This document shows, in pieces, positions 14,304 to 63,807 of a stretch of DNA of 64,000 nucleotides. The stretch comes from Candidatus Caldarchaeum sp. (GTDB lineage Archaea; Thermoproteota; Nitrososphaeria_A; Caldarchaeales; Caldarchaeaceae), in assembly GCA_038885755.1 (NCBI GenBank), contig JAVZZH010000001.1, positions 256,001-320,000 on the forward strand, read 5' to 3'. The position numbers and the translations under genes are program-made. The notes under the pieces were generated by a model. That model did not search any database, was not told the DNA's origin, and was given only the letters and a program-made list of their open reading frames with translations. Within the stretch, counting starts at the first letter, position 1. Each line of letters starts with the position of its first letter.

Positions 14304-14409
14304 AGACTACAGAGGTATAACGCAGAAATCCCCTAGATAGTGGAGCATGTGCCGGATGCGCTGAAGCGATAAATATGCGTGGCTTGAAGAGGGCGGTGAG
14401 GTACAAAAA

Positions 14410-15923: not shown

Positions 15924-16003
15924 CGACTGACTCCCGGGCCTAATGTTTTTAAGACTTTCCACGGAAGGCAAAAGGTGATATAAGACATACTCAGCGTGTT
16001 GAC

Positions 16004-18164: not shown

Positions 18165-18232
18165 CTCGTTCCTGAATAATGGGCGTGGTGGTGGGATAAA
18201 ACCATAAAGACCCCGCGACGTTTTGTTGTTGC

Positions 18233-19612
18233 ATGTCGGCTGAGGAGAGAGTTTACAAGCTGGTTGACGTGGACAGCTTTACACCCGTCGCCTCAGGCGT
18301 GGAAAGCGGTTCGGCGGAGAGGAGGCCGGGAGACGGCGTCGTTGCCGGAACCGGCATGGTCGACGGAAGGCCTGTGGCTGTTTGTGCGACGGAACCATCG
18401 TTCCTGAAAGGCTCTGTCGGGGTTGAGGGGGCGAGGAAATTGACTAGCCTGTTCAGCCATGCGCAGAGGCTGGGCGTACCCGTCGTCCTCCTTTCCGACT
18501 CTTCTGGTGCCAGGGTGAATGAGGGGCAGCCTGTTCTTCAAGCCCTGGCGGAGTTGCTGTTGAAGGTCGTGGAGGCTCGGCGCTACATACCTGTGATCAC
18601 GGCTGTGCTGGGCGGCTGCGCCGGCGCCATGTCTGTGCTCGCGGGGCTTAGCCACTTGGTCGTAGGCTGTAAGGAGAAAGGCTACATGTTTCTTTACGGC
18701 CCTAGAGCGGTGAAACACCTCGTCGGAGAGGAAGTAGAGCTGTCAAGGCTGGGAGACCTTGAAAACCTATCGGCCAAAGCCGGAACCGTCCACATAATCG
18801 CGGAGGACGAGGACTCAACCATAAAAACCGTCAAACATCTTCTTCAGCTCCTGCCTCAAAACTCTTCGCAAACCCCGGAACAGAAACCGTTCACAGACCC
18901 GCCTGACCGGCTGATTCCCGAGAAAGTTTTCGAGGAAGAGTCATCTAAGCTCGTGTCTGAAGTATGCGACAGAGGGTCCTGTATCGAGCTGAGACCCACG
19001 TACGGAAGGGCTGTGTCCACTGTTCTGGGGAGACTGTCTGGACTCCCGGCGGGCTTCGTCGCGTCGAACCATTTCTACAACAAGGGGTTGATCGACAGGG
19101 AAGCAGCCGTCAAGACATCGGAGTTCGTCGAGCTCTGCAGCCTTTTCAACATACCCGTCATAACGTTGGTCAACACGCCGGGTTTTTCGGTAGGTCTTTC
19201 CCATGAGGAGGCCGGGATTCTAAGGCATGTGGCGCAGGTGGTGAGAGCCTACGCTGGCTGCCGCGCACCAAAGATAGCTGTAATAGCTGGCCGGGCCTAC
19301 GGAGCAGCTTACATCGCCATGGGCAGCAGGTTTCTGGGAGCTGACTACGTCTACGCAACCCCCCAAGCAGAGGTTGCGACGATGCCGCCCGAAGCCATCG
19401 TAGAGACAATCCACAGCAAGAAACTCACTACGATGACGGAGGAGGAAAAACAGGCGCTGGTAGACCAGGAGAAGATTAAATCCTCATCACAGACGCTTCT
19501 ATCAAACGGCCTTGTAGACGAGATAATAGATAAACAACACCTACGGAGCAAGCTAGCCATAACACTCCTAAACATCTACAAAGTCCGCGGGCAGGGTCAA
19601 GCCCTCGTTTGA
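18233..19612 (+). CDS. Acyl-CoA carboxylase carboxyltransferase subunit (divergent)
   Basis: DGVVAG, DSSGARVNEG, NTPGF and AYGAAYIAM motifs. Confidence 0.8.
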   Translation: MSAEERVYKLVDVDSFTPVASGVESGSAERRPGDGVVAGTGMVDGRPVAVCATEPSFLKGSVGVEGARKLTSLFSHAQRLGVPVVLLSDSSGARVNEGQPVLQALAELLLKVVEARRYIPVITAVLGGCAGAMSVLAGLSHLVVGCKEKGYMFLYGPRAVKHLVGEEVELSRLGDLENLSAKAGTVHIIAEDEDSTIKTVKHLLQLLPQNSSQTPEQKPFTDPPDRLIPEKVFEEESSKLVSEVCDRGSCIELRPTYGRAVSTVLGRLSGLPAGFVASNHFYNKGLIDREAAVKTSEFVELCSLFNIPVITLVNTPGFSVGLSHEEAGILRHVAQVVRAYAGCRAPKIAVIAGRAYGAAYIAMGSRFLGADYVYATPQAEVATMPPEAIVETIHSKKLTTMTEEEKQALVDQEKIKSSSQTLLSNGLVDEIIDKQHLRSKLAITLLNIYKVRGQGQALV

Positions 19613-25977: not shown

Positions 25978-28239
25978 CTAGCGAAGCTTCTCAGGCTTGA
26001 TCGGAAGAGACTTCACCCTTTTTCCCAGCGCGTCGTAAACAGCGTTGGCGAGCGCCGCAGCCGTAGGTATGCATCCCGTCTCGCCGATGCCCTTCGCCCC
26101 GTAGGGCCCGGCAGGGTCCGGATTCTCGACGAACACGACCTTAATCGGAGGGGTTTCGAGAGACGTGGGCAGCAGGTAGTCCGCGAGCGAGGCGTTGACT
26201 ACACGGCCGTTGTCCAGAACCATCTCCTCGTACAAGGCGTAGCCAAGCCCCATCGCAACACCTCCATGAACCTGTCCCTCCGCAGCCATAGGGTTCAGGA
26301 TGCGGCCCGAGTCATGGACCGAAACAATCTTCAGAACCTTGAGAGCTCCCGTCTCAGGGTCTACTTCGACAAGCGCCGCCTGAACTCCGAAAGAGTAGGC
26401 CGCCGAAAGGTTGCCCATCCATCTCTCGTCCTGCATCTCCGTCGGCGGGTCGTAGTAAGCTGAAAAGACAAGGTTGCTCCCCCCCTGCCTGAAGTGAATT
26501 CTCCGAACGACCTTTTCCAGCTCAATCCTCTTCGAAGGAGACTGCCGGGAATATATCACGCCGTCCTCGACGACGAGCTCCGACGGCTGCGTGTTCAAAG
26601 CCTCCGCCGCCGCACGCAGTATAGCCTCTTTCGCCTTCCTAGCTGCCAGCAAAGCAGAGTTTCCCGCGACGAAGGTGGCTCTGCTTGCGTGCGTGCCTAC
26701 GTCCCATGGGCGGATGGATGCGTCGTCGTTCACTACGCGAACGTTCTGCACCTGAACGCCAAGCTCCTCCGCAACGATCTGAGCTATCGCTGTGTCCGAC
26801 CCCGTGCCTAAGTCAGTCGAACCCGTGATGACTGTGACGACGCCGAAGTCGTCGATGGAGAGAACCGTGCCGCAGCCGTCTGAACGGTAGACCCTAGCCC
26901 CTCCACCGACGTGGAAGAATGACGCAAACCCTATGCCCCTGTTCGGTCCAGCCATTCCTCTCCCCCTCCAGCCCACCTCCTCAGCGGCCCTGCGGAGACA
27001 TTCTCTCAGCTCGCAGGTCGTGATCTTCATGCCCTGCGGCGTTGTTGTGTAAGGCTTGTTCGCGTTCAGCATACGGAACTCGACGGGGTCCATGCCGAGC
27101 TCCTCAGCCAGCATGTCCATCTGCTGCTCTATTGCGAAGGTTATCTGAGGGTTTCCAGCGCCTCTCTGAGTGCCTGTGTAGGGGTTGTTTGTGTAGACGA
27201 CGGTAGCCTCGAACCTCACCTCGGCGACGTCGTACAGCCCGGTGGCGGTCGCCATCATCACTCTTCCGTCGAACGGCCCCCAAGAAACGTAGGCCCCTGC
27301 GTCTAGAATCACGCGAGCATCCCTGGCCAACAGCCTACCATCTCTGTCAGCCGCGGTCCTCATCATGATGATGGCGGGCTGGCGTGGCGGAGCGTACTGG
27401 AGCTCCTCCTCCCTCGTGAACACTATCTTCACGGGCCTCCTCGTCTTGATCGAGAGGGCGGCGGTTATCGGGTCGAGAGGGTAGATGTCCATCCCCCGGC
27501 CGAAGGCCCCGCCTATCTCAGGCTGCACCACCCTTATCTTGGCCGGGTTGAAGCCCAGCGTTTTAGCCAGCTCGTGGCGGTAAAGGAAAGGGGCTTGAGT
27601 GTTGGTGTAGACCGTGAGCTCTCCCACCGCGTTGTAGTGAGCTATGCAGCCCATGGTCCCCAGCGGCGAGGCGTTCATGTACTGGACTTGGTACCTGTCC
27701 TCAACCGTTGCAGCGGCTTTCGTGAAAATCTCTGAGAAGCGTCTGTCGTCGGATGTGGTGAACCTGAAGCCCAAGTCAACCACGTTGCTTCCCGCCTCCT
27801 CGTGTACGAGCGGGGCTCCGGGCTTGGACGCCTCCTCCGGGTCGAACACACCCTCCAGAGGCTCGTACTCGACTTCAATCTCTTCCAGCGCCCTTTCAGC
27901 CTCCTCGACGGTCTCCGCAGCAACTGCAGCAACCTCGTCACGTACAGACCTCACCTTGCCGGTCTTGAGAGGCGGATGGTCTTTCAACACCCCCATGTTG
28001 TTGAACCGAAAATCAAAGCCCGTGATCACAGCTCTTACTCCCGGAATCCTCCAAGCCCGCTCCGTGTTTATTCTCAGGATCCTAGCGTGCGGGTAGCGGC
28101 TCCTCAGTATCTTGCCGTGAAGCATGTTCGGGAGCTCCAAGTCGTCTATGTATTTTGAACTTCCCGACACCTTGAGCCCGCCGTCTATCTTCGGCACAGA
28201 CCTACCTATCACGCGGTATCTTTCGGCGTAGGACAGCAC
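25978..28239 (-). CDS. Xanthine dehydrogenase-family molybdopterin-binding (large) subunit
   Basis: GGAFG, RGAGNPQ, THASR, GQVHGG and GAKGIGE motifs. Confidence 0.9.
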   Translation of the reverse strand: MLSYAERYRVIGRSVPKIDGGLKVSGSSKYIDDLELPNMLHGKILRSRYPHARILRINTERAWRIPGVRAVITGFDFRFNNMGVLKDHPPLKTGKVRSVRDEVAAVAAETVEEAERALEEIEVEYEPLEGVFDPEEASKPGAPLVHEEAGSNVVDLGFRFTTSDDRRFSEIFTKAAATVEDRYQVQYMNASPLGTMGCIAHYNAVGELTVYTNTQAPFLYRHELAKTLGFNPAKIRVVQPEIGGAFGRGMDIYPLDPITAALSIKTRRPVKIVFTREEELQYAPPRQPAIIMMRTAADRDGRLLARDARVILDAGAYVSWGPFDGRVMMATATGLYDVAEVRFEATVVYTNNPYTGTQRGAGNPQITFAIEQQMDMLAEELGMDPVEFRMLNANKPYTTTPQGMKITTCELRECLRRAAEEVGWRGRGMAGPNRGIGFASFFHVGGGARVYRSDGCGTVLSIDDFGVVTVITGSTDLGTGSDTAIAQIVAEELGVQVQNVRVVNDDASIRPWDVGTHASRATFVAGNSALLAARKAKEAILRAAAEALNTQPSELVVEDGVIYSRQSPSKRIELEKVVRRIHFRQGGSNLVFSAYYDPPTEMQDERWMGNLSAAYSFGVQAALVEVDPETGALKVLKIVSVHDSGRILNPMAAEGQVHGGVAMGLGYALYEEMVLDNGRVVNASLADYLLPTSLETPPIKVVFVENPDPAGPYGAKGIGETGCIPTAAALANAVYDALGKRVKSLPIKPEKLR

Positions 28240-51599: not shown

Positions 51600-52013
51600 A
51601 TGGTTAGGGAGTTCACATACAAAGGCTACACAGTTGAACAGCTCATGTCCATGAGCATGGATGCTGTGATAAAGCTCCTGCCCAGCAGGGCTAGGAGAAG
51701 CCTCTACAAGAGAGGCCTCACTCCTGCGCAGTCCAAGCTGCTGGTCAAGGTGCGTAAGGCTAGGAAGCTTCTAGAGTCGGGGCAGAGGCTTGAGAAGCCG
51801 ATTAAGACACACTGCAGGGACATGATTATAATCCCCGAGATGATCGGGTTAACCATCCACGTTCACAACGGCAAGGAGTTTCAGCCCGTCGAGATCGTTC
51901 CCGAGATGCTTGGACACAGGCTCGGCGAATACGTAATCACTAACAAGAAGGTCGTCCACGGAAGAGCAGGAGTCGGCGCGACTAGGAGCAGCATGTACGT
52001 CCCGCTGAAATAG
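51600..52013 (+). CDS. rps19: 30S ribosomal protein S19 (uS19)
   Basis: FTYKG, KTHCRDM, HNGKEF and ATRSS.YVPLK motifs. Confidence 0.97.
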
Positions 52014-52442
52014 CCTTACGCATCTACGTGTGTCAAGAGCTACGAGCTTCTGAAGCCAGCGACACTGTTCCTCCGTCAGAAGCTGTGAGTTTTGAGCGGA
52101 TAGACATCTAGCTTCTGCACGGCTAATAACAGCTGGGCTTGCAAAATACCGTCCCATGCCGTCGGCGGCGAAAGCATCCAATGAGATGGAACGAGTAATA
52201 AAAACCATCGACAGCGGTGCTCACAAAAGCTCTAAGAAGCTTGGCTCGGAGAAAGATAGGCTATCTCAACAAGGCTTCACACACCAAGTATAGCGCTCCT
52301 GCATGTGACCAGACATCAATTGAACGTTTTCAGAAATAAGCGGGCATACAAAACCAACAGGTTCAAGGCGTGTCGGGAAAGATGTATTTTAGAGAAAAAA
52401 GACTTAAATAAACTATGCACGTCGCGTCAGTTGATTTGATTC

Positions 52443-54758
52443 ATGAAAAGAGTTGAAGACATGCGGCTTCTCAAAGGCCTCGGTGTTTTTGTAGACGACC
52501 TAACGCTTCCTAAGATGCTTCACTGCGTATTTACCCGAAGCAGTTACGCTCACGCAAAGATTCTCAGAATAGATTATTCCGAAGCCCTCAAGACAGGGGG
52601 TGTAGTGGCGGTAATAGATGGAAGTTACGTAGCGTCGCGCTACAAACCGCTCAACACACTCATAAATGGAATTAATTACTATGGAATAGCCGTTGACAAA
52701 GTCCGCTACTTTGGAGAACCAGTGGCGATGGTGCTAGCCGATTCCGTCGAGACGGCATACGACGCCGCAGAAAAAATCTACGTAGATTATGACCCGCTTC
52801 CGGCGGTTGTTGAGCCTGAGAAGTCCGCGGCTTCGACGACCTTAGTCCATGAAAACGTTGGAACTAACCTTGTTCTTCACAGAAGCTTCAGATTCGGCGA
52901 TGTAGATAAAGCGTTTGAAGAAGCTCATACTGTTGTCTCGGAAAAATTCTATTTCGACCGGTACGCCGCCTCACCGGTAGAGACGTGCGGTGTTCTTGTC
53001 AACTATCTAAAGGATGGGTCTTTAACAGTTTACGACAACCAGCAGACACCGTATCTTTTTAGAAAAACCATAGCACGTTCCTTAGGCATCGACCCTGAGA
53101 AAGTTAGGTTTATCGAAAAAGACGCAGGCGGTGGTTTCGGCGTAAAGATCATGCTCTACCCATATGTTTTCTTACTCTGCCTCGCGTCCTTACACGTTCA
53201 AAGACCTGTAAAATGGTTCGAAACGAGGAGAGAGCATCTAACGTCTATGGCTCAAAACTCGAACAGAGTGACCTACGCCGAGATGGCCTTGGATAAAACC
53301 GGCCGAATCACCGGCTACAGGACGAAGTTTTACGAGGATTGTGGAGCGTTTGTCAGACTGCCCGACCCCGGAGGAGTCATAAGATCCTTGATGACCTATC
53401 AGGGATGTTATGATATCAGAAATATCGAGGTTGATTTGAATGTTGTAGTGACGAATAAATGTCCAACCGGGCCTGTCAGAGGCTATGGGTGCCCGCAGGC
53501 ATATTTTGTTCTGGAAAGGATGATGGATATCGCGGCGAAGCAGGTTGGGTTATCACCCTTTGAAATCCGTATCCGCAACATGGTGGATAAAAGCCAGCAA
53601 CCTTACCGAACGGTTTTCGGCAGCCTGTATGACGGCGGTGATTACAAAAACGTTCTGGAGAGAGCGTGGAAGCTTGCCGAGCCGGAGAAATTCGCTGGCG
53701 AACCTAACGTGGGTATCGGGATAGCGTGTGTTGTGGAGCCAGCTGTGACGAACCTGGCTCGAAATAAGCTTCTTTTCCCCGAGATTGAAGCATCGGGTTC
53801 AGGCGAGGGAGCGGTGGTCCGTCTCGAGGAATCGGGGAACATAACAGTCTACATAGCATCCATTCCCCAAGGTCAAGGGCACGAAACTGTCGCTACGCAG
53901 GTCGTCTGCGAAACTTTGAACGTTAAGCCCGAGCGGGTGAGAATTGTTTATGGTGATTCAGAAATGGTTTACCCCAGCCCGTATGGAGGGACATGGGCTA
54001 GCAGATTCAGCGTGATGACCACAGCTGCCGTGAAAAAAGCCTGTGAAACCCTGAAACGCAGCATACTCTCCGTCGCCTCCGAACTCCTCGAAGCATCTGA
54101 AAACGACCTGGAAATCCGCGACGGAGCAATCTACGTAAGAGGGTCTGAAGCCTCGATCTCGTTGGAACAGCTTGCCGCAAAAGCATACCGCGACAGTGTC
54201 AAAGCACGTAGCCGCGCCCCGCTGCAGGCTGAACATTTCTATGATTTCCCAACATTCAACACAGGCGTTGCAGGAGGTATCAACATGTCGGCCACCTACG
54301 GCAACTCAGCGCATGTTGCAATAGTAAGGGTAGACCCCGAAACCTTCAAACCAACAATACTACGGTATGTGGCGGTCCATGACTGCGGCAGGATCTTGAA
54401 CAAACAAATCGTCGACGGCCAGATATTCGGCGGAGTAGTGCAGGGGATTGGGGCAACGCTTTACGAAAGAATCGTTTACGATGAAAACGGACAGATTTTA
54501 ACATCGTCTTTCATCGACTACCTTTTGCCAACATCTGTTGAGACGCCGGAGGTCATAGTAGACCACTTAGAGACCCCGTCTTTGTTTTCTGAGCTTGGGT
54601 CGAAGGGTATGGGCGAGGGCCCCTTGATACCTGTATCTGCTTCGATAGCCAACGCAGTTGAAGATGCTTTGAAAACCCGAATAAACAACTCTCACATCTC
54701 GCCTCAACAGCTCTGGGAGACGATGAAAAATAATAAAAATAAGCTGCGAAAGAGTTGA
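52443..54758 (+). CDS. Molybdenum hydroxylase large subunit (xanthine dehydrogenase/CoxL-like family)
   Basis: RVED, GGGFG.K, RGYG, QGQGHET, GTWASR, GQIFGG and GSKGMGE motifs. Lacks the AYxCSFR loop of form I CO dehydrogenase. Confidence 0.9.
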   Translation: MKRVEDMRLLKGLGVFVDDLTLPKMLHCVFTRSSYAHAKILRIDYSEALKTGGVVAVIDGSYVASRYKPLNTLINGINYYGIAVDKVRYFGEPVAMVLADSVETAYDAAEKIYVDYDPLPAVVEPEKSAASTTLVHENVGTNLVLHRSFRFGDVDKAFEEAHTVVSEKFYFDRYAASPVETCGVLVNYLKDGSLTVYDNQQTPYLFRKTIARSLGIDPEKVRFIEKDAGGGFGVKIMLYPYVFLLCLASLHVQRPVKWFETRREHLTSMAQNSNRVTYAEMALDKTGRITGYRTKFYEDCGAFVRLPDPGGVIRSLMTYQGCYDIRNIEVDLNVVVTNKCPTGPVRGYGCPQAYFVLERMMDIAAKQVGLSPFEIRIRNMVDKSQQPYRTVFGSLYDGGDYKNVLERAWKLAEPEKFAGEPNVGIGIACVVEPAVTNLARNKLLFPEIEASGSGEGAVVRLEESGNITVYIASIPQGQGHETVATQVVCETLNVKPERVRIVYGDSEMVYPSPYGGTWASRFSVMTTAAVKKACETLKRSILSVASELLEASENDLEIRDGAIYVRGSEASISLEQLAAKAYRDSVKARSRAPLQAEHFYDFPTFNTGVAGGINMSATYGNSAHVAIVRVDPETFKPTILRYVAVHDCGRILNKQIVDGQIFGGVVQGIGATLYERIVYDENGQILTSSFIDYLLPTSVETPEVIVDHLETPSLFSELGSKGMGEGPLIPVSASIANAVEDALKTRINNSHISPQQLWETMKNNKNKLRKS

Positions 54759-54764
54759 TGAGAA

Positions 54765-55949
54765 ATGAAAACCGTTCTGATCAAAAACATAGGTAAAATA
54801 GTTTCGGGAAAAATAGCTAAGCCAATAGTCGACGGCGACAGCATATACATCAGCAACGGCGTCGTAGAGGAAGTTGGATACAACATTTCACGCCAGGCTG
54901 ACGGGGTCTTCGACGTCAACGGCATGACAGTCATTCCAGGACTGTTTGATTCCCATGTTCACCCGGTTTTCGGAGATTTCACACCCAGGCAAAACACTCT
55001 CGGGTTCATAGAATCGTCTGTCAACGGAGGCGTGACAACATTCATCTCAGCCGGTGAAGTGCATTTGCCCGGCAGGCCTCGCGGCGATAAGGATGCGGCG
55101 AAGGCGTTGGCAATTTTAGCCCACAAAACATTCAAAAACCTTCGGCCTCTCGGCGCGAAGATTCACGCCGGAGCTTTGCTGCTTGAGAAAGGACTGGTTG
55201 AGGCTGATTTTGAAGAAGTGGTGAGGGCCGGTGTTTGGTTGGTTGGCGAGGTTGGTCTCGGAAGCGTCCAGGACCCAGATGAGGCGGCGGCTCTGGTGAG
55301 AATAGCCCAGAAACACGGCATGAAAGTGGTTATCCACACAGGAGGAGCATCGATTCCAGGCAGCACGATCATCAACGCGGAAGTAGTCCTGAAGGTAAAG
55401 CCGAACGTCGTGTCGCACATCAACGGAGGGCCCACATCACCATCGTTGACAGACATCCGAAGAATAATCGAGAACACAGAATCAGCCATCGAAGTCGTGC
55501 AGTGCGGCAACTTCAAATCCATGGTCGAAACAGTCAAGATACTCCATTCACGCAACGAGCTGAACAGGCTGATAATAGGAAACGACGCGCCATCGGGAAC
55601 CGGCGTAGTCCCGCTCGGAATAATCCGGACTGTATCTTTCATCGCATCCAACACGTCAGTTGAGGCGGAGAAAGTTGTCTGCGCAGCCACCGGCAACACT
55701 GCCAAAGTCTTCGGCTTAAAGGAAGGCGTTATCGAACCAGGAAAACCCGCAGACCTCATAGTCGTGGACACGCCCTACGGCTCGACCGGCAGAGACGCTC
55801 TCGAAGCATTTTCCGTCGGCGACATTCCCGGCATAGCTATGGTGATGGTCGACGGCGTTCCACGTGTAGGCCGCAGTAGGATGACTCCCCCTCCAACGAA
55901 ACATATAAAAACTGAAGGAGAAGCGAAACTCCCCGAAGGCGGTCATTAA
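54765..55949 (+). CDS. ena: Enamidase (amidohydrolase superfamily)
   Basis: IKNIGKIVSG, DSHVH, GDFTPRQ, GEVGLG, HTGG.SIPGS, SHINGGPT, GNDAPSGTG, GDIPGI and SR.TPP match the Eubacterium barkeri enamidase as I recall it along the whole length. Confidence 0.88.
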   Translation: MKTVLIKNIGKIVSGKIAKPIVDGDSIYISNGVVEEVGYNISRQADGVFDVNGMTVIPGLFDSHVHPVFGDFTPRQNTLGFIESSVNGGVTTFISAGEVHLPGRPRGDKDAAKALAILAHKTFKNLRPLGAKIHAGALLLEKGLVEADFEEVVRAGVWLVGEVGLGSVQDPDEAAALVRIAQKHGMKVVIHTGGASIPGSTIINAEVVLKVKPNVVSHINGGPTSPSLTDIRRIIENTESAIEVVQCGNFKSMVETVKILHSRNELNRLIIGNDAPSGTGVVPLGIIRTVSFIASNTSVEAEKVVCAATGNTAKVFGLKEGVIEPGKPADLIVVDTPYGSTGRDALEAFSVGDIPGIAMVMVDGVPRVGRSRMTPPPTKHIKTEGEAKLPEGGH

Positions 55950-55950
55950 A

Positions 55951-56931
55951 ATGAAGCTAGGCCTCCGGTTGCCAACATTCACACGCACGGGTGATTTTTC
56001 ATCAGGCGAAGCCTTGAAAAACTATGTTGCTGAGGCTGAGCAACTCGGCGTCCAGGGATTCTTCGTCATCGACCATTTGCTTACATCGCGGCCGGCTTAT
56101 TCAACTAGCTGGCACGACCCGTTGATTGCCCTGTCCTTCGTCGCGGCGGCGACAAAGAACGCCGTTGTAGGTCCCATGGTGATGGTGCTGCCTCTCAGAA
56201 GTCCCTATCTTGTCGCAAAACAGACAGCTTCTTTGGATGTTTACTCTGGAGGAAGATTTGTGCTTGGAGCGGGCGTGGGATGGAACGTCGACGAATTCAA
56301 ACTGCTTAACGTTCCGCTGGAAAAAAGAGGAGTTATAATGGACGAATACCTTGCCCTTCTCAAAAAGCTCTGGACCGATGACAAAGTCACGTTCGAGGGA
56401 AAACATTTCAACGTGAAAGACCTAGTCCTCGAGCCCAAGCCTGTTCAGAAACCACATCCCCCTATATGGATAGGTGGCGGCAGCCAGCCGCATGAAATTC
56501 TCTACGGTGCTGCCGCGAAGGGAATCGATAAAGTTCTTCTACGCATAGCCAAGTTTGCGGATGGATGGATACCGCATTCAAGCTCAACGCCCGAGATGTC
56601 GGCTCAGGACTGGGAGAAAGTGAAGAAATATGCAGAGGAGCTCGGACGCGACCCCTACCGAATAACAAAAGTCTATTCAAACTTTGTCTACATCCGTAGC
56701 CCGGGAGAGGATGACAACGAAGCCGTGAAACGTTTTTCACTCTACTCAGGTATGAACCTCGAATACTGGAGAAACTACTACCTCTACGGCACTGCTGACG
56801 AGCTTGCGGTGAAGATCAAGAAACGCATCGAATCGCTTGAGGGCGTTGACTGGGTCGTGCTAAACCCCGTGACGTTTGAAAGAACGCAGCTTCTCAGAAT
56901 CACGCAAGACCTCTATCCTCGCGTCAGCTAA
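55951..56931 (+). CDS. LLM-class (luciferase-like) flavin/F420-dependent oxidoreductase
   Basis: IDHL, LDVYSGGRFVLGAGVGW..DEF, PKPVQKPHPPIWIGG and ADGWI motifs. Confidence 0.88.
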   Translation: MKLGLRLPTFTRTGDFSSGEALKNYVAEAEQLGVQGFFVIDHLLTSRPAYSTSWHDPLIALSFVAAATKNAVVGPMVMVLPLRSPYLVAKQTASLDVYSGGRFVLGAGVGWNVDEFKLLNVPLEKRGVIMDEYLALLKKLWTDDKVTFEGKHFNVKDLVLEPKPVQKPHPPIWIGGGSQPHEILYGAAAKGIDKVLLRIAKFADGWIPHSSSTPEMSAQDWEKVKKYAEELGRDPYRITKVYSNFVYIRSPGEDDNEAVKRFSLYSGMNLEYWRNYYLYGTADELAVKIKKRIESLEGVDWVVLNPVTFERTQLLRITQDLYPRVS

Positions 56932-56969
56932 ACAAAACTATAAAAGCCTCTATATTTGCTGGAAAAACC

Positions 56970-58184
56970 ATGAAAAGGTCAGTCGTCATTGCTATCGTTG
57001 CCGTGGTCGTGGTCGTTGCAGCTTCGTCTGGTGTGTTCCTGTTTCTCTCACAGCAGAGCCTTGGAGTATCTGAGGTGAAGATCGGAGCTCTCGTTCCTTT
57101 GACAGGTCCTTTCGCCATCTACGGCGACTACACAATTTACGGGATGAGGTTTGCTGTCGATGAACTGAACGCCAAGGGAGGTGTTCTTGGGGCGAAGGTC
57201 GTTCTCATCGAGGCTGACGAAAAAAACGACGCGAAGGAAGCTGTTGCGATATTCAAAAGGATGGCGGAGATTGACCGCGTAACCGCCGTTGTGGGTACAA
57301 TTTCGAGCGGGATCGGCGCAGTCTTGACGGCTGAGGCGGAGCAGGCGAAGGTTCCGCTTTTCCTCATAGCAGCCGGATCACACACAATCCTGACCAAGGA
57401 TTCCCGCTACACGTTCAGAACCTGTCTACCGCCTGCTCCAACTAACGGCGAGCTCCTAGCCAACTTTGTCCGCGACAAAGGCTACAAGAGAGTCGGCGTA
57501 GTCATAGCTAGTTATGAATGGGGTTTTGCCATCAAGGAAGTTTTGGAGAAACGGCTGAAGGATATTCCGGGAGTACAGTTTCAGATTGAGGAAGCTCCTC
57601 TAGGTGAGACTGACTTTACAACCGTTCTTCGGAAGCTTCAGCCCCTCAATCCAGAGGTCATGATACTGACCGGGCATCCGCCGGGATTCCCCGTTATCAC
57701 CAAGCAAGCCATTGAACTTGGTTTCCAATCAGAGTACTACATTGCTTCAGTTCAGCCGCCTGAACTCATGCTCAGAGGTGTTGGAGAAATAGGCCTCAAC
57801 AAGCTTGTCACAACCACGTGCGTGAACTTAGAAGCACCCCAGTACCGTGAGCTGGCGGAGAAATTCTACCAGAAATACGGCAAATACTTTGACCATAACG
57901 CGGTATCCGGATACGTCACCGTGTTGTTGATCGCCGACGCTGTGGAGAAGACAAGGTCAACAGACCCCGCAGTTGTTGCCAACTACATCCGTACACACGA
58001 GTTCAACCATCCCGTATTCGCATGGCCGTTGTCCTACACCGAGTGGGGCGAGATAAAGAAGCCGTCGATGCGTCTCGCTGTGATTAAGAGCGGAAACCCA
58101 GGCCCGGTCAACCCGGGAGCGAACTGGCTGGTTGAAAACCTGTATACATCGCCGCCGGTCGAGCCTTACGTTCCAGCCAAATAA
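56970..58184 (+). CDS. Liv-type ABC transporter substrate-binding protein
   Basis: N-terminal anchor; IGALVPLTG, NAKGGVLG, YTFR and DF motifs. Confidence 0.9.
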   Translation: MKRSVVIAIVAVVVVVAASSGVFLFLSQQSLGVSEVKIGALVPLTGPFAIYGDYTIYGMRFAVDELNAKGGVLGAKVVLIEADEKNDAKEAVAIFKRMAEIDRVTAVVGTISSGIGAVLTAEAEQAKVPLFLIAAGSHTILTKDSRYTFRTCLPPAPTNGELLANFVRDKGYKRVGVVIASYEWGFAIKEVLEKRLKDIPGVQFQIEEAPLGETDFTTVLRKLQPLNPEVMILTGHPPGFPVITKQAIELGFQSEYYIASVQPPELMLRGVGEIGLNKLVTTTCVNLEAPQYRELAEKFYQKYGKYFDHNAVSGYVTVLLIADAVEKTRSTDPAVVANYIRTHEFNHPVFAWPLSYTEWGEIKKPSMRLAVIKSGNPGPVNPGANWLVENLYTSPPVEPYVPAK

Positions 58185-58185
58185 C

Positions 58186-58206
58186 ATATTTTTATATTTC
58201 TTTTCC
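58186..58206 (+). terminator. Possible internal oligo-T terminator after the binding-protein gene
   Basis: TTTTTATATTTCTTTT directly after the stop codon. Confidence 0.4.
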
Positions 58207-58243
58207 TGACGAGAAGACGGTTGATAACGGTTTGGGATCTATA

Positions 58244-58981
58244 ATGCTAAACTGTATTGACGTGACTATGTTTTTCGGCGGTCTACCGGCCCTGAGGAAC
58301 GTCAACCTCCAAGTTGAGGAGGGTGAGATCAGGGCTGTCATCGGCCCTAACGGAGCTGGTAAAACAACGCTGTTTAACGTGATAAACGGAGTCTACAAGC
58401 CTTCTTCAGGCAAGATTCTGCTCGATGGTGTTGACATAACTAGAAAACCTCCATACGTGGTTTTTAAGCTCGGTGTTGGAAGAACTCTCCAGATTCCAAG
58501 GCCTTTCAAGGATTTGACGGTTTGGGAGAACGTTCTGGCAGGCGGGCTGTTCAGCGGCCGTATGTCGATGGATGAGCTGGAAAACCATGTTTCAACGCTC
58601 TTAGACAGACTCGGTTTATCCAGTAAAGCAAACCTCAAAGCAGCTGTTCTGAACCTTCAGGAAAGGAAGAAAGTAGAGCTGGCGAGAGCCTTGGCGTCGA
58701 AGCCAAAGGTTTTGATGGTGGATGAATACATGAGCGGCCTCAACACCGCCGAAATAGAGGATGCCGTAGAGCTCTTCAGAGAACTGAGGAAAACCTACAA
58801 CCTTACGATCATCTGGGTCGAACACGTGATCAGCGCGGTGTCATCCCTCGCCGACAAGGTTTCAGTCCTAAACCAAGGGGTAAAGATAGCTGAGGGAAAG
58901 CCTGAAGAAATAGTCGCCGACGAAGAGGTAATTGAAGCTTACTTGGGTGAGAGAATTGTCCAGCCTTCTAAAAGTGGATAA
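58244..58981 (+). CDS. Liv-type ABC transporter ATP-binding protein (LivG-like)
   Basis: FGGL.AL, GPNGAGKTT, LARAL, VEH and V.EAYLG motifs. Confidence 0.92.
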   Translation: MLNCIDVTMFFGGLPALRNVNLQVEEGEIRAVIGPNGAGKTTLFNVINGVYKPSSGKILLDGVDITRKPPYVVFKLGVGRTLQIPRPFKDLTVWENVLAGGLFSGRMSMDELENHVSTLLDRLGLSSKANLKAAVLNLQERKKVELARALASKPKVLMVDEYMSGLNTAEIEDAVELFRELRKTYNLTIIWVEHVISAVSSLADKVSVLNQGVKIAEGKPEEIVADEEVIEAYLGERIVQPSKSG

Positions 58982-59675
58982 CCTCGCAGCAGCATACGGC
59001 GACATTCAAATTCTCTGGGATGTTTCGATAAACGTAAACAAGGGAGAAGTGGTCGTCGTTTTGGGCCCCAACGGTGCCGGCAAAACAACCCTTCTCAAAA
59101 CTATTGCAGGCTTGTTGAAACCCAAAAAAGGTTCAGTGACCCTTGATGGTAAACGAATAGACGGCCTGCCGCCTGAAAAGGTTGTCGGAGAAGGCGTGGC
59201 ATTGGCACTCGCTGAGAAAGAACTCTTTCCCCAGATGACTGTAAAGGAAAACCTGCTTCTCGGAGCCTTCCACGCTAGGGCGAGGAAAAAAGTTCATGAA
59301 AACCTCGAGCTTGTCTACAGCATCTTTCCAAAACTCAAAGAAAGAGAGTTTCAAAAAGCGGGGACCATGAGCGGTGGCGAACAGCAGATGCTGGCCATCG
59401 GCAGAGCTTTGATGACGGATGCTAAGCTTTTGCTTCTGGACGAGCCTTCCACAGGACTTGCTCCACTACTCGTCAAAAACATTTTCACAGGACTGAGGAG
59501 AATAATGGAGAACAAGAAAGAGCTGTCGATACTTCTAGTCGAACAACGAACGGTGCAGGCGGCGGAGCTGTGCGACAGGGGATACATACTCACGAACGGC
59601 CGCATAGTGTTCGACGGCGACATACGAGAAGGGCTGTCGAAACAGGCTTTCGTCAGAAAGTATCTGGGGATGTAG
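58956..59675 (+). CDS. Liv-type ABC transporter ATP-binding protein (LivF-like)
   Basis: GPNGAGKTT, MSGGEQQMLAIGRAL, DEPSTGLAP and LVEQ motifs. Confidence 0.92.
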   Translation: MSSLLKVDNLAAAYGDIQILWDVSINVNKGEVVVVLGPNGAGKTTLLKTIAGLLKPKKGSVTLDGKRIDGLPPEKVVGEGVALALAEKELFPQMTVKENLLLGAFHARARKKVHENLELVYSIFPKLKEREFQKAGTMSGGEQQMLAIGRALMTDAKLLLLDEPSTGLAPLLVKNIFTGLRRIMENKKELSILLVEQRTVQAAELCDRGYILTNGRIVFDGDIREGLSKQAFVRKYLGM

Positions 59676-59677
59676 AT

Positions 59678-60550
59678 ATGGACTCTAGTTTCCTTTTATT
59701 CGTTATAGATGGAGTGGTTTTTGGCTTGATTCTTTCGCTGATAGCCGCAGGCTTGACTTTGATATACGGCCTAGCCGGCGTGCTTAACCTTGCACACGGC
59801 GAGCTGCTGGTTGTATGCACAGTAACCTCGGCTGTCTTGATGCAGACATTTGGTTTTCCGCTATCGCTGGCTTTAGTAGCTGGCCTAGCCGTCACAGCAG
59901 GTGCAGCCGCCTTCCTCGACAAGATCGTTCTACAGCCCGTTTACAGGCTTGAAGGTGAGGAAAGAGTTCTTCTAGGCCTCTACTTGACGCTCGCTTTCTC
60001 AATCTTCCTCCACAGCTCTATCATAACAACTTTCCCCCTCGCGTTCCTCACGATCAACCTGCCGATAGCAACAATCAACTTCATGGAGTTGAAGCTTCGG
60101 CTGGCTCAGTTGGTGACCGGCGTGTCTTCAGCGGCCATCCTAGTGGGAGTTTACTTTTTCCTCAGGAGAACTTGGAGCGGTATGGCGATACGTTCCCTCA
60201 CTCAAAATGAAACAGGTGCGTTGATGGTCGGAGTAAGCGTCAAGAAATATCGTTTGCTGGTTTTCATGCTGGGAGCTTTTCTCGTCGGCCTTGCTGGGAT
60301 AATACGTAGCATCATAGCAACGGTTGCGCCGGAAAGCGGAATAGAGTTCACAATCCTAGGACTGCTTGTCTGCGTGGTGGGCGGGATTCGCAGCGTCTAC
60401 GGAGTGATTATCGCCGGCCTAGTCATAGGAATAGCCTATACTTTCCTCGTCTTCTTCATAGGTACTTACCTTGCCTACGTAGCTCTTTTGATCCTCATCA
60501 TAGCCATCATAATTGTTCGTCCCTACGGTATCGTGGGTGAGAAATGGTGA
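59678..60550 (+). CDS. Liv-type ABC transporter permease (LivH-like)
   Basis: GLTLIYG...NLAHGE, G.AIR and RPYG motifs. Confidence 0.92.
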   Translation: MDSSFLLFVIDGVVFGLILSLIAAGLTLIYGLAGVLNLAHGELLVVCTVTSAVLMQTFGFPLSLALVAGLAVTAGAAAFLDKIVLQPVYRLEGEERVLLGLYLTLAFSIFLHSSIITTFPLAFLTINLPIATINFMELKLRLAQLVTGVSSAAILVGVYFFLRRTWSGMAIRSLTQNETGALMVGVSVKKYRLLVFMLGAFLVGLAGIIRSIIATVAPESGIEFTILGLLVCVVGGIRSVYGVIIAGLVIGIAYTFLVFFIGTYLAYVALLILIIAIIIVRPYGIVGEKW

Positions 60551-61503
60551 GAGAGAGGGTAAAACTTAACGCTGTCATAGCACTGATACTTATTTACACA
60601 GCGTTGCCGCTACTGTTCATCAACACGCCCTACATCGTCTTCATATTAGTTCAGATGGTTTTCTTCACGGTTTTCGCCTACGGGTTTAACTTTCTGTTCG
60701 GGTTTACACGGCAGCTCTTCCTATGTATAGGGGCCTTCATCGGGGTTGGTGCATACATTACGGGGATATCTCTCCGAGACGGTTTGATGGGGCCTGTTGA
60801 GGCCATTCTAGTTTCCACACTGGTGGTCGCCTTCGTCGGATGGGCTGTCAGCATAATATCTATCCGTCGCAGGCTTGTCGTTATCTTCACAGGAATCTTC
60901 ACCCTAGCTATCACGCTTGTCTTCAACAACCTTGTAATAGGCCTCGCTAGCCTAACAGGCGGCGAGACGGGTTTCAGAATACGTGGAATAAGCCTAGGGC
61001 CTCTTGACTTGCTACCATACAACCTACGTTTCTACTATCTTGCCGCGGCCACGCTGCTGGCGGTGACTGTAGCATCCTACTACCTGCTTTTCCACACAAA
61101 AACAGGATACGCGTACCGCTGTATCATAGATGATGAAAACAGCGCCGAACTTGTCGGAATAAACGTCTCGAGGGTTAAAAGTCTAACAGCCCTGTTTTCA
61201 TCAGCGCTTCTGGGGCTGGCGGGAGCTCTTTACGGGCTGTTCTCGCAGCTCATCGCGCCCTCGTATTTCGCTTTTTCATCGGTCGACATTCCTGTCCAGC
61301 TTATCGTCATCCTAGGCGGAAGAACCACCCTGCTAGGTCCGTACATAGGCTCGGCCATCATCTCTATCGTAAACGAGGCCTTGAAATTTCTCGGGCCTTT
61401 GACGCAGGTCCTCTACGGTTTGACGCTGATGTTCCTTCTCGCGTTCTTCCGGAACGGGATAGTCGACTTCGTAAAGAGAAGATGGGTTAAATGGTTCTTT
61501 TAA
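60544..61503 (+). CDS. Liv-type ABC transporter permease (LivM-like)
   Basis: GAY, TGGETG, DDE..A...G and ILGG....GP motifs. Confidence 0.9.
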   Translation: MVRERVKLNAVIALILIYTALPLLFINTPYIVFILVQMVFFTVFAYGFNFLFGFTRQLFLCIGAFIGVGAYITGISLRDGLMGPVEAILVSTLVVAFVGWAVSIISIRRRLVVIFTGIFTLAITLVFNNLVIGLASLTGGETGFRIRGISLGPLDLLPYNLRFYYLAAATLLAVTVASYYLLFHTKTGYAYRCIIDDENSAELVGINVSRVKSLTALFSSALLGLAGALYGLFSQLIAPSYFAFSSVDIPVQLIVILGGRTTLLGPYIGSAIISIVNEALKFLGPLTQVLYGLTLMFLLAFFRNGIVDFVKRRWVKWFF

Positions 61504-62105
61504 CGCAGCCCGTCCTCTCCCCGGACCTCCTCTTTCCTCAAGCCGCCGATTCTAGGCAACGGTCTTCCAGAGTCCGACAACGCGGCTATGACCACTATCT
61601 CATCAGGTAGCGGGGCGTCCGGAACTCTTACCTCCATGCTGTCGTAATGTGAGCGGACAAAGGCGGCTCTTTTGTAGTGTAGCGGTACGTCGATAGCCGT
61701 CCCGGGATAGCCTATTTTAACCGATGAGGGGATTATTGCCTTGCACACGTCCGCACCGCCGCATTCCTCTCGGAAACCCTTTCCAAACTTGGGATGGAGA
61801 ATCGCGTGTCCGTGCTCAAGCTCGCCCATCATGCCGATGATCGCTGCCTTGCCATAGTTCTCGGTCGAGTCAGGAGTTATGGCTAACGCTTCACGGGCTT
61901 TCTTCGCAAGGTAGCCTCCCAGAAATTCTCCAGCCTCAATTAACATAGATAGATCTTCGACATATCTGCCGGCAAAAGGGTTCTTTATGACGGCTGCCGC
62001 GGCACTTCTTCTGACTGGTTTGCCTAGCTCGTTTCCCATCTCCACAAATGTTTCGTCGGTCGCTACGACAACTTTCCGTAGAATAACTCCGCCAGCTATT
62101 TTCAT
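61500..62105 (-). CDS. AA_synth (DUF1185)-family protein
   Basis: AAAVIKNPFAGRYVEDL, YGKAAI.G..GELEH, IDVPL, RSHYD, DAP.PDE and GRP.PR motifs. Confidence 0.88.
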   Translation of the reverse strand: MKIAGGVILRKVVVATDETFVEMGNELGKPVRRSAAAAVIKNPFAGRYVEDLSMLIEAGEFLGGYLAKKAREALAITPDSTENYGKAAIIGMMGELEHGHAILHPKFGKGFREECGGADVCKAIIPSSVKIGYPGTAIDVPLHYKRAAFVRSHYDSMEVRVPDAPLPDEIVVIAALSDSGRPLPRIGGLRKEEVRGEDGLR

Positions 62106-62106
62106 T

Positions 62107-63549
62107 TCACCACCACCTCGTAGTTATTATCTTATGATCTGTGAAAAACCTTATCGTGTCGACCCTGCTGTGAGCGTTTCCAAAGAAAGACTGCTTCCTC
62201 CCGCCCAGCGGGAAGTATGCCATTGGTTGGGGAACACCTATGTTCACGCCTACATTGCCGACGTTGACGTTTAAACAGAATTCTCTTGCAGCCCGCGGGT
62301 CTGATGTGAAGATTGAGGCAGCGTTGCCGAAAGGCGTGTTGTTGTTTATGAGGTCGATGGCTTCGCCGAGGCTGTCTACTCTGAGAATGGTCGCAACGGG
62401 GCCAAAGATTTCTTCTTTCGCTAGGGGCGAGTCGGGTGGAAGGTCTTTGAAGATTGTTGGGCCGACGAAGTATCCTTGAAGACCTTTGAGCTGGCTATGG
62501 AGCCGGCCGTCCAGCATAGGTTTCGCATACTGTTCACCTATTTCTATGTATCTCCTGACCCTCTCCACTCCCTGGCGTGAAGCCATCGGACCCATCTCCG
62601 TCTCCTTGTCCATGCCGTATCCCAGCCTCAGGTTTGACTTGGATAAAACCATGTCCACAACCCTCTCAGCTCCTTTCAAAACAACTAGGTTGGAACCGGC
62701 TAGACATCTCTGGCCCGTCATTCCAAAGAACGAGGAAACAGCCGCATCAGCGGTTTTAGACAATTCGGCGTCAGGCGCCACCACAATATGGTTTTTCGCT
62801 CCGGCGTTAATTGATGCTCTCTTACCCTCCTTAGCCACCATCTCGTAGAGCAGTTTACCAGTCTTGGTCGAGCCTATGAAGCCCACCCCCTGGATTCCGT
62901 TATGCTTGACCAGTTTCTCGGCCACGCGTCCGTCTCCATGGACTATGGACATGACTCCAGGCGGAACGCCTGCTTCTCTGACTATGCGGGCAACCTCGTC
63001 ATAAACAAGGGGTGTGACCTCGCTTGGCTTAAGAACGACAGTGCATCCAAGAGCGATAGCGTAGGGAACGTAAGAGGACCATGCGTGGAGCGGGATGTTG
63101 AAGGGAGTTATTACAGCAAAACATCCCAACGGCTCCCGGATCAGTTCCTGGTCTATGTCTGGTGAGATGTTGACCATTTTCTCGCCTTTTGCAAGCGTAT
63201 AAGCAAGCGCGGCAGCCGATTCTACGTTTTCAATGCTTCTCTTAACCTCTCCCACTCCCTCGGCGTAGGTCCTTCCATGGTTCTCGACCAAAACGCGTGC
63301 AAGCAGGTCTGTGTCGCGTTCCAGCAGGCTTCTCAATCGCATGAGATAACCTACCCTTTCCGACGGAGTCGTCTTCCTGTATTTTTCAAATGCTCTGAGA
63401 CCAGACTCGACAGCTCTGTCAACGTCTTCTGAAGTACTCGCCGGCACGTATGCGATTACTGAGTCGAAGGCAGGATTATACACTGGAATCGTCTCGACAG
63501 ACTTTGATGGGACGAATTCGTTGTCGACGAAGTTCTGCAGAATCTTCAT
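62107..63549 (-). CDS. CoA-acylating (methyl)malonate-semialdehyde dehydrogenase-like aldehyde dehydrogenase
   Basis: ITPFN.P, KPSE, GAKNH (no catalytic-Glu ELGG), GQRCLA, EEIFGPV and GVNIGVPQP...SFFG, as in the MmsA/IolA subfamily. Confidence 0.85.
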   Translation of the reverse strand: MKILQNFVDNEFVPSKSVETIPVYNPAFDSVIAYVPASTSEDVDRAVESGLRAFEKYRKTTPSERVGYLMRLRSLLERDTDLLARVLVENHGRTYAEGVGEVKRSIENVESAAALAYTLAKGEKMVNISPDIDQELIREPLGCFAVITPFNIPLHAWSSYVPYAIALGCTVVLKPSEVTPLVYDEVARIVREAGVPPGVMSIVHGDGRVAEKLVKHNGIQGVGFIGSTKTGKLLYEMVAKEGKRASINAGAKNHIVVAPDAELSKTADAAVSSFFGMTGQRCLAGSNLVVLKGAERVVDMVLSKSNLRLGYGMDKETEMGPMASRQGVERVRRYIEIGEQYAKPMLDGRLHSQLKGLQGYFVGPTIFKDLPPDSPLAKEEIFGPVATILRVDSLGEAIDLINNNTPFGNAASIFTSDPRAAREFCLNVNVGNVGVNIGVPQPMAYFPLGGRKQSFFGNAHSRVDTIRFFTDHKIITTRWW

Positions 63550-63722
63550 GCCTTTATGCTCAGATGGGAGTTTTTAAATCTGATGCTTCTAGGACGTCTT
63601 TGCAATGAAAGGGGCCTTAGCCGTTGAAAGAAGCACTAGCCTAGTGTAGCCATTAATTTGTGGGATGAGTTTCAAGGGAATCCATCTCTTAAATCAGCGG
63701 AGACACACGCTAGAGTAAAATG

Positions 63723-63807
63723 TGCGGGGGGTGGGATTTGAACCCACGAACCCCTTCGGGACAGGGTCCTAAGCCCTGCGCCGTTGACCAGGCTTGGCAA
63801 CCCCCGC
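63723..63807 (-). tRNA. tRNA-Leu (TAG)
   Basis: Acceptor GCGGGGG/CCCCCGC, anticodon arm CAGGG-CT-TAG-GA-CCCTG, long variable arm and T-loop GGTTCAAATCC. Confidence 0.97.

Follow-up and report, generated by a model that had tools for sequence, protein, structure and literature searches.

We found, in a stretch of 64,000 nucleotides from the genome of a Candidatus Caldarchaeum species, a compact run of ten open reading frames (ORFs) at positions 52443-63549, in which a molybdenum (Mo) hydroxylase subunit, a homologue of enamidase and an importer of the Liv type are encoded side by side. This stretch, referred to as the window, covers positions 256,001-320,000 of contig JAVZZH010000001.1 (C1) of assembly GCA_038885755.1, and all coordinates without a contig label are those of the window. 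The genome (labelled G000) comprises 1.33 Mb on 10 contigs at a completeness of 86.5%. Gene families were assigned by Pfam and NCBIfam profile searches, for which the curated NCBIfam cut-offs were applied. Eight of the ORFs lie on the plus strand and two, convergent to them, on the minus strand:

52443..54758, plus strand: large subunit of a Mo hydroxylase, 771 residues (Pfam Ald_Xan_dh_C, MoCoBD_1 and MoCoBD_2)
54765..55949, plus strand: enamidase homologue (amidohydrolase), 394 residues (match to 2VUN, 417 bits)
55951..56931, plus strand: luciferase-like oxidoreductase (LLM) of the F420 type, 326 residues (Pfam Bac_luciferase; NCBIfam TIGR03619)
56970..58184, plus strand: substrate-binding protein of the importer, 404 residues (Pfam Peripla_BP_6)
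58232..58981, plus strand: LivG-like ABC ATPase (ABC_tran and BCA_ABC_TP_C; LivG model 209 bits)
58932..59675, plus strand: LivF-like ABC ATPase (ABC_tran; LivF model 237 bits)
59570..60550, plus strand: LivH/UrtB-like permease, start uncertain (BPD_transp_2, 102 bits)
60544..61503, plus strand: LivM/UrtC-like permease (BPD_transp_2, 110 bits)
61500..62105, minus strand: AA_synth/DUF1185 protein, 201 residues (PF06684, 227 bits)
62107..63549, minus strand: aldehyde dehydrogenase resembling methylmalonate semialdehyde dehydrogenase (MMSDH), 480 residues (Aldedh; best family TIGR01722, MMSDH)

The plus-strand genes are separated by gaps of 1-47 nucleotides (nt) or overlap slightly. The listed TTG start of the LivF-like gene overlaps the LivG-like gene by 50 nt, and its real start may lie further 3'. 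On the opposite strand, the DUF1185 gene starts 1 nt downstream of the dehydrogenase gene. An earlier reading of this DNA, the original prediction, had placed a Mo hydroxylase, an enamidase, an LLM, a Liv importer, an MmsA-like dehydrogenase and an AA_synth gene here, and all ten genes do lie at these coordinates, with families that the Pfam and NCBIfam searches confirmed.

Judged by homology, the amidohydrolase at 54765-55949 is a genuine enamidase homologue. It matches the Eubacterium barkeri enamidase 2VUN over residues 3-379 (E 5e-124), and the runner-up among solved proteins reaches only 38 bits; the predicted enamidase gene thus indeed encodes a close homologue of the single characterised enamidase, whose product is given as 2-formylglutarate in the accessible parts of two papers (PMC7356986, PMC9304392). 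A tree of 33 enamidase rows, drawn without the E. barkeri sequence itself, placed the window enzyme in a clade of 12 rows (support 100/99) that unites Caldarchaeales, a metagenome-assembled genome named 'Acidilobaceae', a Bathyarchaeia protein and a group of metagenome contigs (L047-L049). This archaeal-type clade lies apart from the Firmicutes clade, from a proteobacterial clade linked to 6-hydroxynicotinate reductase (Hnr) and from a clade of other gene contexts, and the branching order among these clades is not resolved. DUF1185 genes directly adjoin enamidase-like genes (42-45% identity) in Thermomicrobium roseum, Agrobacterium vitis and Mariluticola as well, in the company of other oxygenases. 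Because such pairs recur with other oxygenases, DUF1185 and enamidase together form a module of broader use in ring opening, and the enamidase family extends beyond nicotinate. A second enamidase-like gene (39-41% identity) occurs in six relatives of the same genus (G002, G004, G006, G008, G009 and G012) and was not found in G000. On the megaplasmid of T. roseum (L038, positions 5940-19178), a Mo large subunit, a DUF1185 protein and an enamidase-like protein are encoded in a row together with a Rieske dioxygenase, a short-chain dehydrogenase, two enoyl-CoA hydratases, a CoA ligase and an ABC system; the row resembles one more N-heterocycle route, so far uncharacterised, in a thermophilic organism.

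The original prediction of an MmsA-like dehydrogenase likewise held up. The ten best solved relatives of the enzyme are all CoA-acylating MMSDH (310-335 bits), ahead of the next family at 253 bits, and its GQRCLA and GAKNH motifs align with the GERCMA or GQRCMA and the GAKNH of 5TJR, 1T90, 9Q0D and 8XXQ. Hydrolytic aldehyde dehydrogenases typically carry a general-base Glu motif; its replacement by GAKNH, together with the Arg-Cys pair common to all these sequences, is what we take to define MMSDH. 'Arg124' of the Bacillus subtilis MMSDH, a presumed binder of the substrate carboxylate, was considered as a further marker and dropped, as the region is not conserved among the four structures and the numbering could not be placed. 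Outside the cluster-linked group, the nearest named relatives are archaeal proteins that NCBI names MMSDH (46-52% identity). The genome holds a second MMSDH-like copy (C1:165164-166660), which is 39% identical to the window enzyme and, at 419.0 bits, also stays under the TIGR01722 cut-off. 2-Formylglutarate is a 2-substituted malonate semialdehyde, which an MMSDH-type enzyme would turn into glutaryl-CoA and CO2; the conversion is chemically sound but unproven, and we infer glutaryl-CoA as the product on chemical grounds only.

The DUF1185 protein has two solved matches, neither with a functional label (PDB 2QTP at 1e-59). We propose that it could act as a helper for the unstable 2-formylglutarate, be it as a decarboxylase, a tautomerase or an activator of the dehydrogenase. 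Its tight pairing with the dehydrogenase has a precedent, because TgnF, a homologue of DUF1185, is described in the accessible part of PMC7913881 as stimulating TgnE, the semialdehyde dehydrogenase of trigonelline breakdown. A prediction of a complex between the two window proteins returned 'no answer' with a score of 0.00 and is neutral either way.

For the Mo subunit, the best solved relatives (357-385 bits) are CoxL, quinoline 2-oxidoreductase (Qor), the glyceraldehyde oxidoreductase of Sulfolobus tokodaii and 6-hydroxypseudooxynicotine dehydrogenase, so that it groups with N-heterocycle hydroxylases as closely as with any other relatives. Its active-site loop, TNKCPTGPVRGYG, aligns with that of Qor without a gap: it reads PVRGYG and lacks the two-residue insert at the place where the CO dehydrogenases 8UEM and 1FFU show AYACSFR and AYRCSFR. 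The AY.CSFR loop with the copper-binding Cys, by which form I CoxL is recognised, was accordingly not found in the subunit, and the catalytic Glu in GMGEG is retained. Because the insert is absent, the loop matches the quinoline enzyme and the catalytic Glu is kept, the protein is, to judge from these residues, a hydroxylase and not a CO dehydrogenase. A genome paper on Caldarchaeales interprets CoxL copies as CO dehydrogenases, and the string 'nicotin' is absent from its accessible part (PMC10547907). G000 encodes 11 full-length large subunits of Mo hydroxylases and one fragment, as against 4 small iron-sulfur (FeS) and 4 medium FAD subunits; most of the large subunits thus lack partners of their own, and these orphans must either share subunits or function in another way. 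Another large subunit copy lies in the window at 25984-28170 on the minus strand.

The LLM passes the curated threshold of family TIGR03619 (203.9 bits, cut-off 166.9), and its solved relatives reach 64 bits at best. Homologues of the bacterial ring reductase Hnr, of UPF0280 and of ferredoxin-NADP reductase were not detected in the 86.5%-complete genome by tblastn at E<=1e-5, the queries being two Hnr proteins from plasmids (PGAP gives this name to one of them) and two proteins each for UPF0280 and ferredoxin-NADP reductase. When 72,556 plasmids were searched with the LLM by tblastn, nothing matched at 1e-50. On the metagenome contigs L047-L049, relatives of the LLM (53-56% identity) adjoin enamidase genes (58-59%). 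On L047 the genes for the enamidase (59%), the LLM (53%) and CofD (310 bits, cut-off 257) come in this order ahead of those for Mo, FAD and FeS subunits, and the enamidase-LLM pair of L048 and L049 faces a short convergent F420_oxidored gene. The complete F420_oxidored copy on L049 passes the model for Fno, the NADPH-dependent F420 reductase (159 bits, cut-off 150). Because the enamidases of L047-L049 fall into the same clade as the window enzyme, these contigs are diverged copies of one invention rather than independent ones. By analogy, an Fno adjoining the LLM would do with F420 what ferredoxin-NADP reductase does for Hnr in the bacterial clusters, namely couple the reductase to NADPH. G000 itself encodes CofD (308 bits, cut-off 257), CofE (259 bits) and Fno (183 bits, cut-off 150). 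A further metagenome contig, L050, which stems from a bacterium of high G+C (72%), carries a DUF1185 gene (57.5% identity; 1175-1735) and an LLM gene (46%; 2565-3509) within 1 kb, with an ORF of 293 residues and weak likeness to CoA-transferases between them and a glycogen phosphorylase fragment upstream.

A connection to bacterial nicotinate degradation emerged from gene clusters on plasmids of a member of the Comamonadaceae and of Sulfitobacter. Both clusters encode a Mo hydroxylase, a Liv-type ABC system, two DUF1185 proteins, UPF0280, ferredoxin-NADP reductase, an enamidase homologue and Hnr, the last being named 6-hydroxynicotinate reductase in the Comamonadaceae record. The window enamidase is 49% identical to the enamidase homologue of the Comamonadaceae cluster and 47% to that of Sulfitobacter. 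The window DUF1185 protein shares 55% and 52% identity, respectively, with one of the two copies in these clusters, and is further (34-48%) from copies in other contexts. DUF1185 and enamidase thus tie the island to the proteobacterial type of nicotinate cluster that works through 1,4,5,6-tetrahydro-6-oxonicotinate (THON). In the accessible part of PMC3511419, such clusters are described for Azorhizobium caulinodans, Bradyrhizobium or Bradyrhizobiaceae and others, with a route that continues via glutarate. The solved relatives of the window's binding protein (at most 92.5 bits) are mostly Leu/Ile/Val binders, with some aromatic-acid binders lower down, and are not informative on its ligand.

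The ten genes behave as a unit across related genomes. In the set of 31 genomes formed by G000 and 30 relatives from its order, the enamidase is present in 16, and both the DUF1185 protein and orthologues of the dehydrogenase (at least 64% identity) occur in the same 16. An LLM orthologue (at least 68%), always adjoining the enamidase, was found in 15 of them; in the 16th the enamidase gene ends after residue 243, apparently at a contig end. Two of the 15 genomes without these genes belong to the same genus and are 76% and 82% complete. Nine related loci were compared. Mo subunit, enamidase and LLM are adjacent in all nine, the pair of DUF1185 and dehydrogenase is present in seven, the remaining two contigs stopping earlier, and six loci hold all ten genes. 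At the locus of archaeon HR01, the transporter genes between LLM and DUF1185 are missing. In another genome the unit is flanked by unrelated genes, which sets its borders at the Mo subunit gene on one side and at the dehydrogenase gene on the other. The original prediction had been made to depend beforehand on co-occurrence in other archaea, and this was borne out by one presence/absence pattern of four genes over the 31 genomes.

The unit is mobile within Caldarchaeales and is inserted here at the 3' end of a tRNA-Leu gene. The island and its flanking features are:

51600..52013, plus strand: ribosomal protein S19 (Pfam Ribosomal_S19, 101 bits), last of an L3-L4-L23-L2-S19 run; left flank, outside the island
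52017..63722, no strand assigned: island of 11,706 bp, missing at the unoccupied site of a related strain
52404..52412, plus strand: candidate TATA-like box TTAAATAAA, 31-39 nt 5' of the Mo subunit start codon, read by eye from the sequence
63571..63579, minus strand: candidate TATA-like box ATTTAAAAA, 22-30 nt 5' of the dehydrogenase start codon, read by eye
63722..63807, minus strand: tRNA-Leu, anticodon TAG (ARAGORN); its 3' end delimits the island on the right

A contig of 329 nt from an RNA library of another study (X7) runs along 51720-52016, then reads 'AA' and continues from 63723 onward. With 13 differences in 297 nt it stems from a related strain, and with 30 letters on the far side it is a single, borderline observation. 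Since this strain joins S19 directly to tRNA-Leu, positions 52017-63722 represent an insertion of 11.7 kb. The relative G003 agrees with such an empty site: its S19 gene and the PUA-domain gene that follows beyond the tRNA lie 1.7 kb apart, and its cluster is on a different contig. The island has a G+C content of 0.505 (genome, 0.547), a value matched or undercut by 3.8% of 612 equally sized windows across the genome. A mosaic of identities was observed, the enamidase, LLM and transporter genes being about 90% identical to those of G003 and G005 of the same genus (loci L005 and L006), and the dehydrogenase (86%) and DUF1185 (89%) being closest to G024 (L013), a genome of another family and the sole carrier of the cluster among five genomes of that family. 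A repeat search at the two island ends found no direct or att-like repeats pairing them, and the island contains neither an integrase ORF nor any extra ORF of at least 80 residues free of overlap with the ten genes; the integrase and direct repeats of an integrase-borne tRNA island are hence absent here. We also considered, and rejected, an island that interrupts a longer ribosomal operon: the genes beyond the tRNA encode a PUA-domain protein, Mrp/NUBPL, a CBS protein, an ECF component, Cdc6 and an E1 dehydrogenase, and the 1.7 kb between S19 and PUA in G003 counter the idea as well.

The same X7 library gave contigs with 0 differences over parts of the enamidase gene (54749-54986 and 55366-55620), of the binding-protein gene (57434-58177) and of the dehydrogenase gene (62214-62882 and 63292-63526), and read depth also over the LLM and DUF1185 genes. 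X7 contigs are lacking over the Mo subunit gene (52388-54622) and over the permease genes, and such gaps in cover carry no weight. These contigs are only a hint that the enamidase, binding-protein and dehydrogenase genes are expressed, because DNA carry-over is possible in RNA libraries. At 63783/63784, inside the tRNA-Leu gene, contigs of the DNA runs X1 and X8 show 31 extra letters in a tRNA-Leu-like gene, which probably contains an intron and belongs to other members of the community. Run X8, in which a small share of the sequence words occurs, underlies no claim made here.

Taken together, we consider it probable that the island is an uptake and breakdown unit for nicotinate, 6-hydroxynicotinate or nicotinate derived from nicotinamide, which proceeds via THON, ends in glutaryl-CoA and contains two non-orthologous replacements. 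The pyridine carboxylate would be imported by the Liv-type ABC system and hydroxylated at C6 by the lone Mo large subunit, which may borrow FeS and FAD subunits encoded elsewhere. The LLM would then reduce 6-hydroxynicotinate to THON with F420H2, replacing the iron-sulfur flavoprotein Hnr, and the genome's Fno could regenerate F420H2 from NADPH. Enamidase would open the ring of THON, releasing 2-formylglutarate and ammonia. Aided by the DUF1185 protein, the MMSDH-like dehydrogenase would oxidise and decarboxylate 2-formylglutarate to glutaryl-CoA, which generic beta-oxidation enzymes may take to acetyl-CoA. The genome has a single gene of the isochorismatase family, outside the window at C1:481273-481755, which could encode a nicotinamidase supplying nicotinate.

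Several observations weigh against this reading. The steps proposed for all ten proteins are derived from their sequences. At the level of hydroxylation, the Mo subunit scores just 162 and 130 bits against NdhL and NdhM of the E. barkeri nicotinate dehydrogenase and is 26-35% identical to the Mo subunits of the nicotinate-type clusters compared; FeS or FAD subunit genes were found neither within the cluster here nor at locus L009. The binding protein shares 24-26% identity with those of the proteobacterial nicotinate clusters and is not orthologous to them. The enamidase clade is separate from the Firmicutes rows named enamidase, and enamidase-like proteins of 40-45% identity lie beside FAD monooxygenases, Rieske oxygenases or a major facilitator superfamily transporter. 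LLM enzymes act more often on alcohols and aldehydes. The FO synthase subunits CofH and CofG were not found in the 86.5%-complete G000, and across the 31 genomes CofH occurs in one and CofE in all; the order thus seems able to carry out the last steps of F420 synthesis and to employ the cofactor, yet unable to build its head group. F420 production in archaea of the TACK group is described as lacking experimental demonstration so far in the accessible part of PMC8498797. The dehydrogenase, at 414.9 bits, falls under the TIGR01722 threshold of 448.5. A glutaryl-CoA dehydrogenase, which had been suggested as a check, could not be assigned among the six acyl-CoA dehydrogenases of the genome: none reaches the cut-off of a glutaryl-CoA dehydrogenase or of any equivalog, the best GlutCoADH_Des score being 253 against a cut-off of 470. 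The dehydrogenase that adjoins the Sulfitobacter cluster has no close homologue in the genome either (at best 28% identity). The original prediction is therefore supported in part. Its enamidase, its likeness to MMSDH and its co-occurrence stand, and its glutaryl-CoA end is a matter of chemical reasoning; its claim of a near-complete route does not hold in the known sense, as Hnr was not found in the genome, the non-homologous LLM is the sole candidate for ring reduction, and the two electron-transfer subunits of the Mo enzyme are not in the cluster.

The lower pathway is where another course of events appears most plausible, and we give it a real, if minor, chance. As in Azorhizobium, 2-formylglutarate could be decarboxylated by the DUF1185 protein, or spontaneously, to glutarate semialdehyde, which the dehydrogenase would then turn into free glutarate, or into glutaryl-CoA with no decarboxylation of its own; the one-step MmsA-type reaction of the original prediction would in that case not take place. 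Decarboxylation first and oxidation afterwards is the order that Kitts et al. reportedly gave in 1992. The continuation via glutarate described for Azorhizobium (PMC3511419, accessible part) fits this order, as do the stimulation of TgnE by TgnF (PMC7913881, accessible part) and the DUF1185 genes that immediately neighbour enamidase-like ones in Thermomicrobium, Agrobacterium and Mariluticola. The window dehydrogenase speaks for glutaryl-CoA instead: its GAKNH and Arg-Cys motifs, in the meaning we presume for them, fit a CoA-dependent release and a beta-carboxylated substrate.

Somewhat less likely still, the same chemical logic could serve a different N-heterocyclic carboxylate or lactam, such as a substituted pyridine, a pyridone or a partly saturated ring; the enamidase homologue would then open a related cyclic enamide, with an end product other than glutaryl-CoA. 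This would be in keeping with the separate enamidase clade, with the quite different partner genes kept by enamidase-like proteins of 40-45% identity, with a Mo subunit equally near to the quinoline and hydroxypseudooxynicotine enzymes, and with a binding protein that is not an orthologue of those in bacterial nicotinate clusters. Two findings nevertheless favour nicotinate, namely the full-length match of 417 bits to an enzyme specific for THON and the DUF1185 protein, which is closest (52-55%) to the copies in Hnr-containing clusters and reaches 34-48% with those of other contexts.

The assignment of the LLM to the ring has a rival that we regard as improbable, in which the enzyme acts after ring opening. 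It might, as Hgd does in E. barkeri, reduce 2-formylglutarate to 2-(hydroxymethyl)glutarate, or else use some other aldehyde or alcohol; ring reduction would then fall to an unlinked enzyme, or the compound would already be reduced when imported. The characterised F420-dependent LLM enzymes are mostly oxidoreductases of alcohols, aldehydes and sugar phosphates, according to the tables in the accessible part of PMC8498797, and solved relatives of at most 64 bits do not fix the substrate of the window enzyme. Yet a dehydrogenase for the aldehyde is already encoded in the cluster, and the LLM-enamidase pair is kept on L047-L049, where no aldehyde dehydrogenase was seen. The neighbouring Fno and CofD genes point to a supply of reduced F420, and the cluster offers no other candidate for a ring reductase, nor was Hnr found in the genome. 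That a CO-dehydrogenase-like gene, an amino-acid importer and assorted hydrolases merely came together by chance or annotation habit, as the reading of CoxL as CO dehydrogenase in Caldarchaeales literature (PMC10547907, accessible part) and the usual annotation of Liv-type systems as amino-acid importers might suggest, is close to refuted by the co-occurrence data, with four genes following one pattern over 31 genomes, gene gaps of 1-47 nt, a block that moves as a whole and an active-site loop other than that of CO dehydrogenase.

Beyond the probable function of the island as a nicotinate unit, we put forward a broader joint reading more tentatively. Caldarchaeales and some neighbours may possess an undescribed nicotinate route, in which the LLM dearomatises the ring with F420H2, an MmsA paralogue and DUF1185 form glutaryl-CoA in one step, and the whole travels as an 11.7-kb mobile cassette. 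Such a cassette may let hot-spring archaea live on nicotinamide and nicotinate from the thermal decay of NAD. If so, the dearomatisation of 6-hydroxynicotinate by an LLM would be an activity new for its enzyme family, and a known pathway would have been reassembled from components without homology to the original ones, with an archaeal MmsA paralogue and with an LLM in place of Hnr, as a case of convergent evolution. Functions would be gained for the TIGR03619 LLM as a pyridone ring reductase, for DUF1185 as a handler of beta-formyl acids and for one orphan CoxL gene. The presence of CofE in all 31 genomes, and of CofD and Fno in G000, with FO synthase in almost none, raises the puzzle of where these archaea obtain their F420. 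It would also be the first catabolic pathway for nicotinate (vitamin B3) assigned to an archaeon; our literature search found no published account of enamidase work in archaea or of this pathway in an archaeon, in line with a remark to that effect in the original prediction.

Several known systems resemble parts of the island. MMSDH (TIGR01722; 1T90, 5TJR, 9Q0D, 8XXQ) is the best-matching family of the window dehydrogenase over its full length; the window enzyme differs in being a diverged second copy that is tied to the enamidase cluster instead of valine catabolism. Quinoline 2-oxidoreductase (1T3Q) and 6-hydroxypseudooxynicotine dehydrogenase (7DQX) share domain order, ungapped loop type and catalytic Glu with the Mo subunit, but they are encoded with FeS and FAD subunits, whereas the window subunit is an orphan. 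In TgnE and TgnF of Acinetobacter baylyi ADP1, too, an aldehyde dehydrogenase and a DUF1185 protein form a pair in the last part of a route that degrades a pyridine carboxylate, and the corresponding window genes lie 1 nt apart. TgnE is reported as a succinate-semialdehyde dehydrogenase in the accessible part of PMC7913881, whereas its window counterpart, likened to it by description alone, is MMSDH-like and its aldehyde would be 2-formylglutarate.

The route of E. barkeri (NdhFSLM, Hnr and Ena; accessible parts of PMC7356986, PMC9304392 and PMC3511419) has the same logic as the one proposed for the island: hydroxylate, reduce and open the ring hydrolytically. E. barkeri, however, possesses Hnr and a selenium-dependent Mo enzyme that is split into NdhL and NdhM, where the island has a single CoxL/Qor-like large subunit; its later fermentation genes (Hgd, a mutase and others) are not in the island, which carries the MMSDH-like dehydrogenase instead. 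Closest in gene content is the THON cluster of Azorhizobium and Bradyrhizobiaceae, as far as it is described in the accessible part of PMC3511419, with which the island shares a Mo hydroxylase large subunit, an enamidase homologue, a Liv-type importer, DUF1185 and a presumed end in glutarate or glutaryl-CoA. By sequence, the enamidase, the Liv importer and DUF1185 of this cluster type are all present in the island and Hnr is not. The bacterial cluster has Hnr, UPF0280, ferredoxin-NADP reductase and two DUF1185 genes, whereas the island brings together an F420-type LLM, one DUF1185 gene and an MMSDH-like dehydrogenase.

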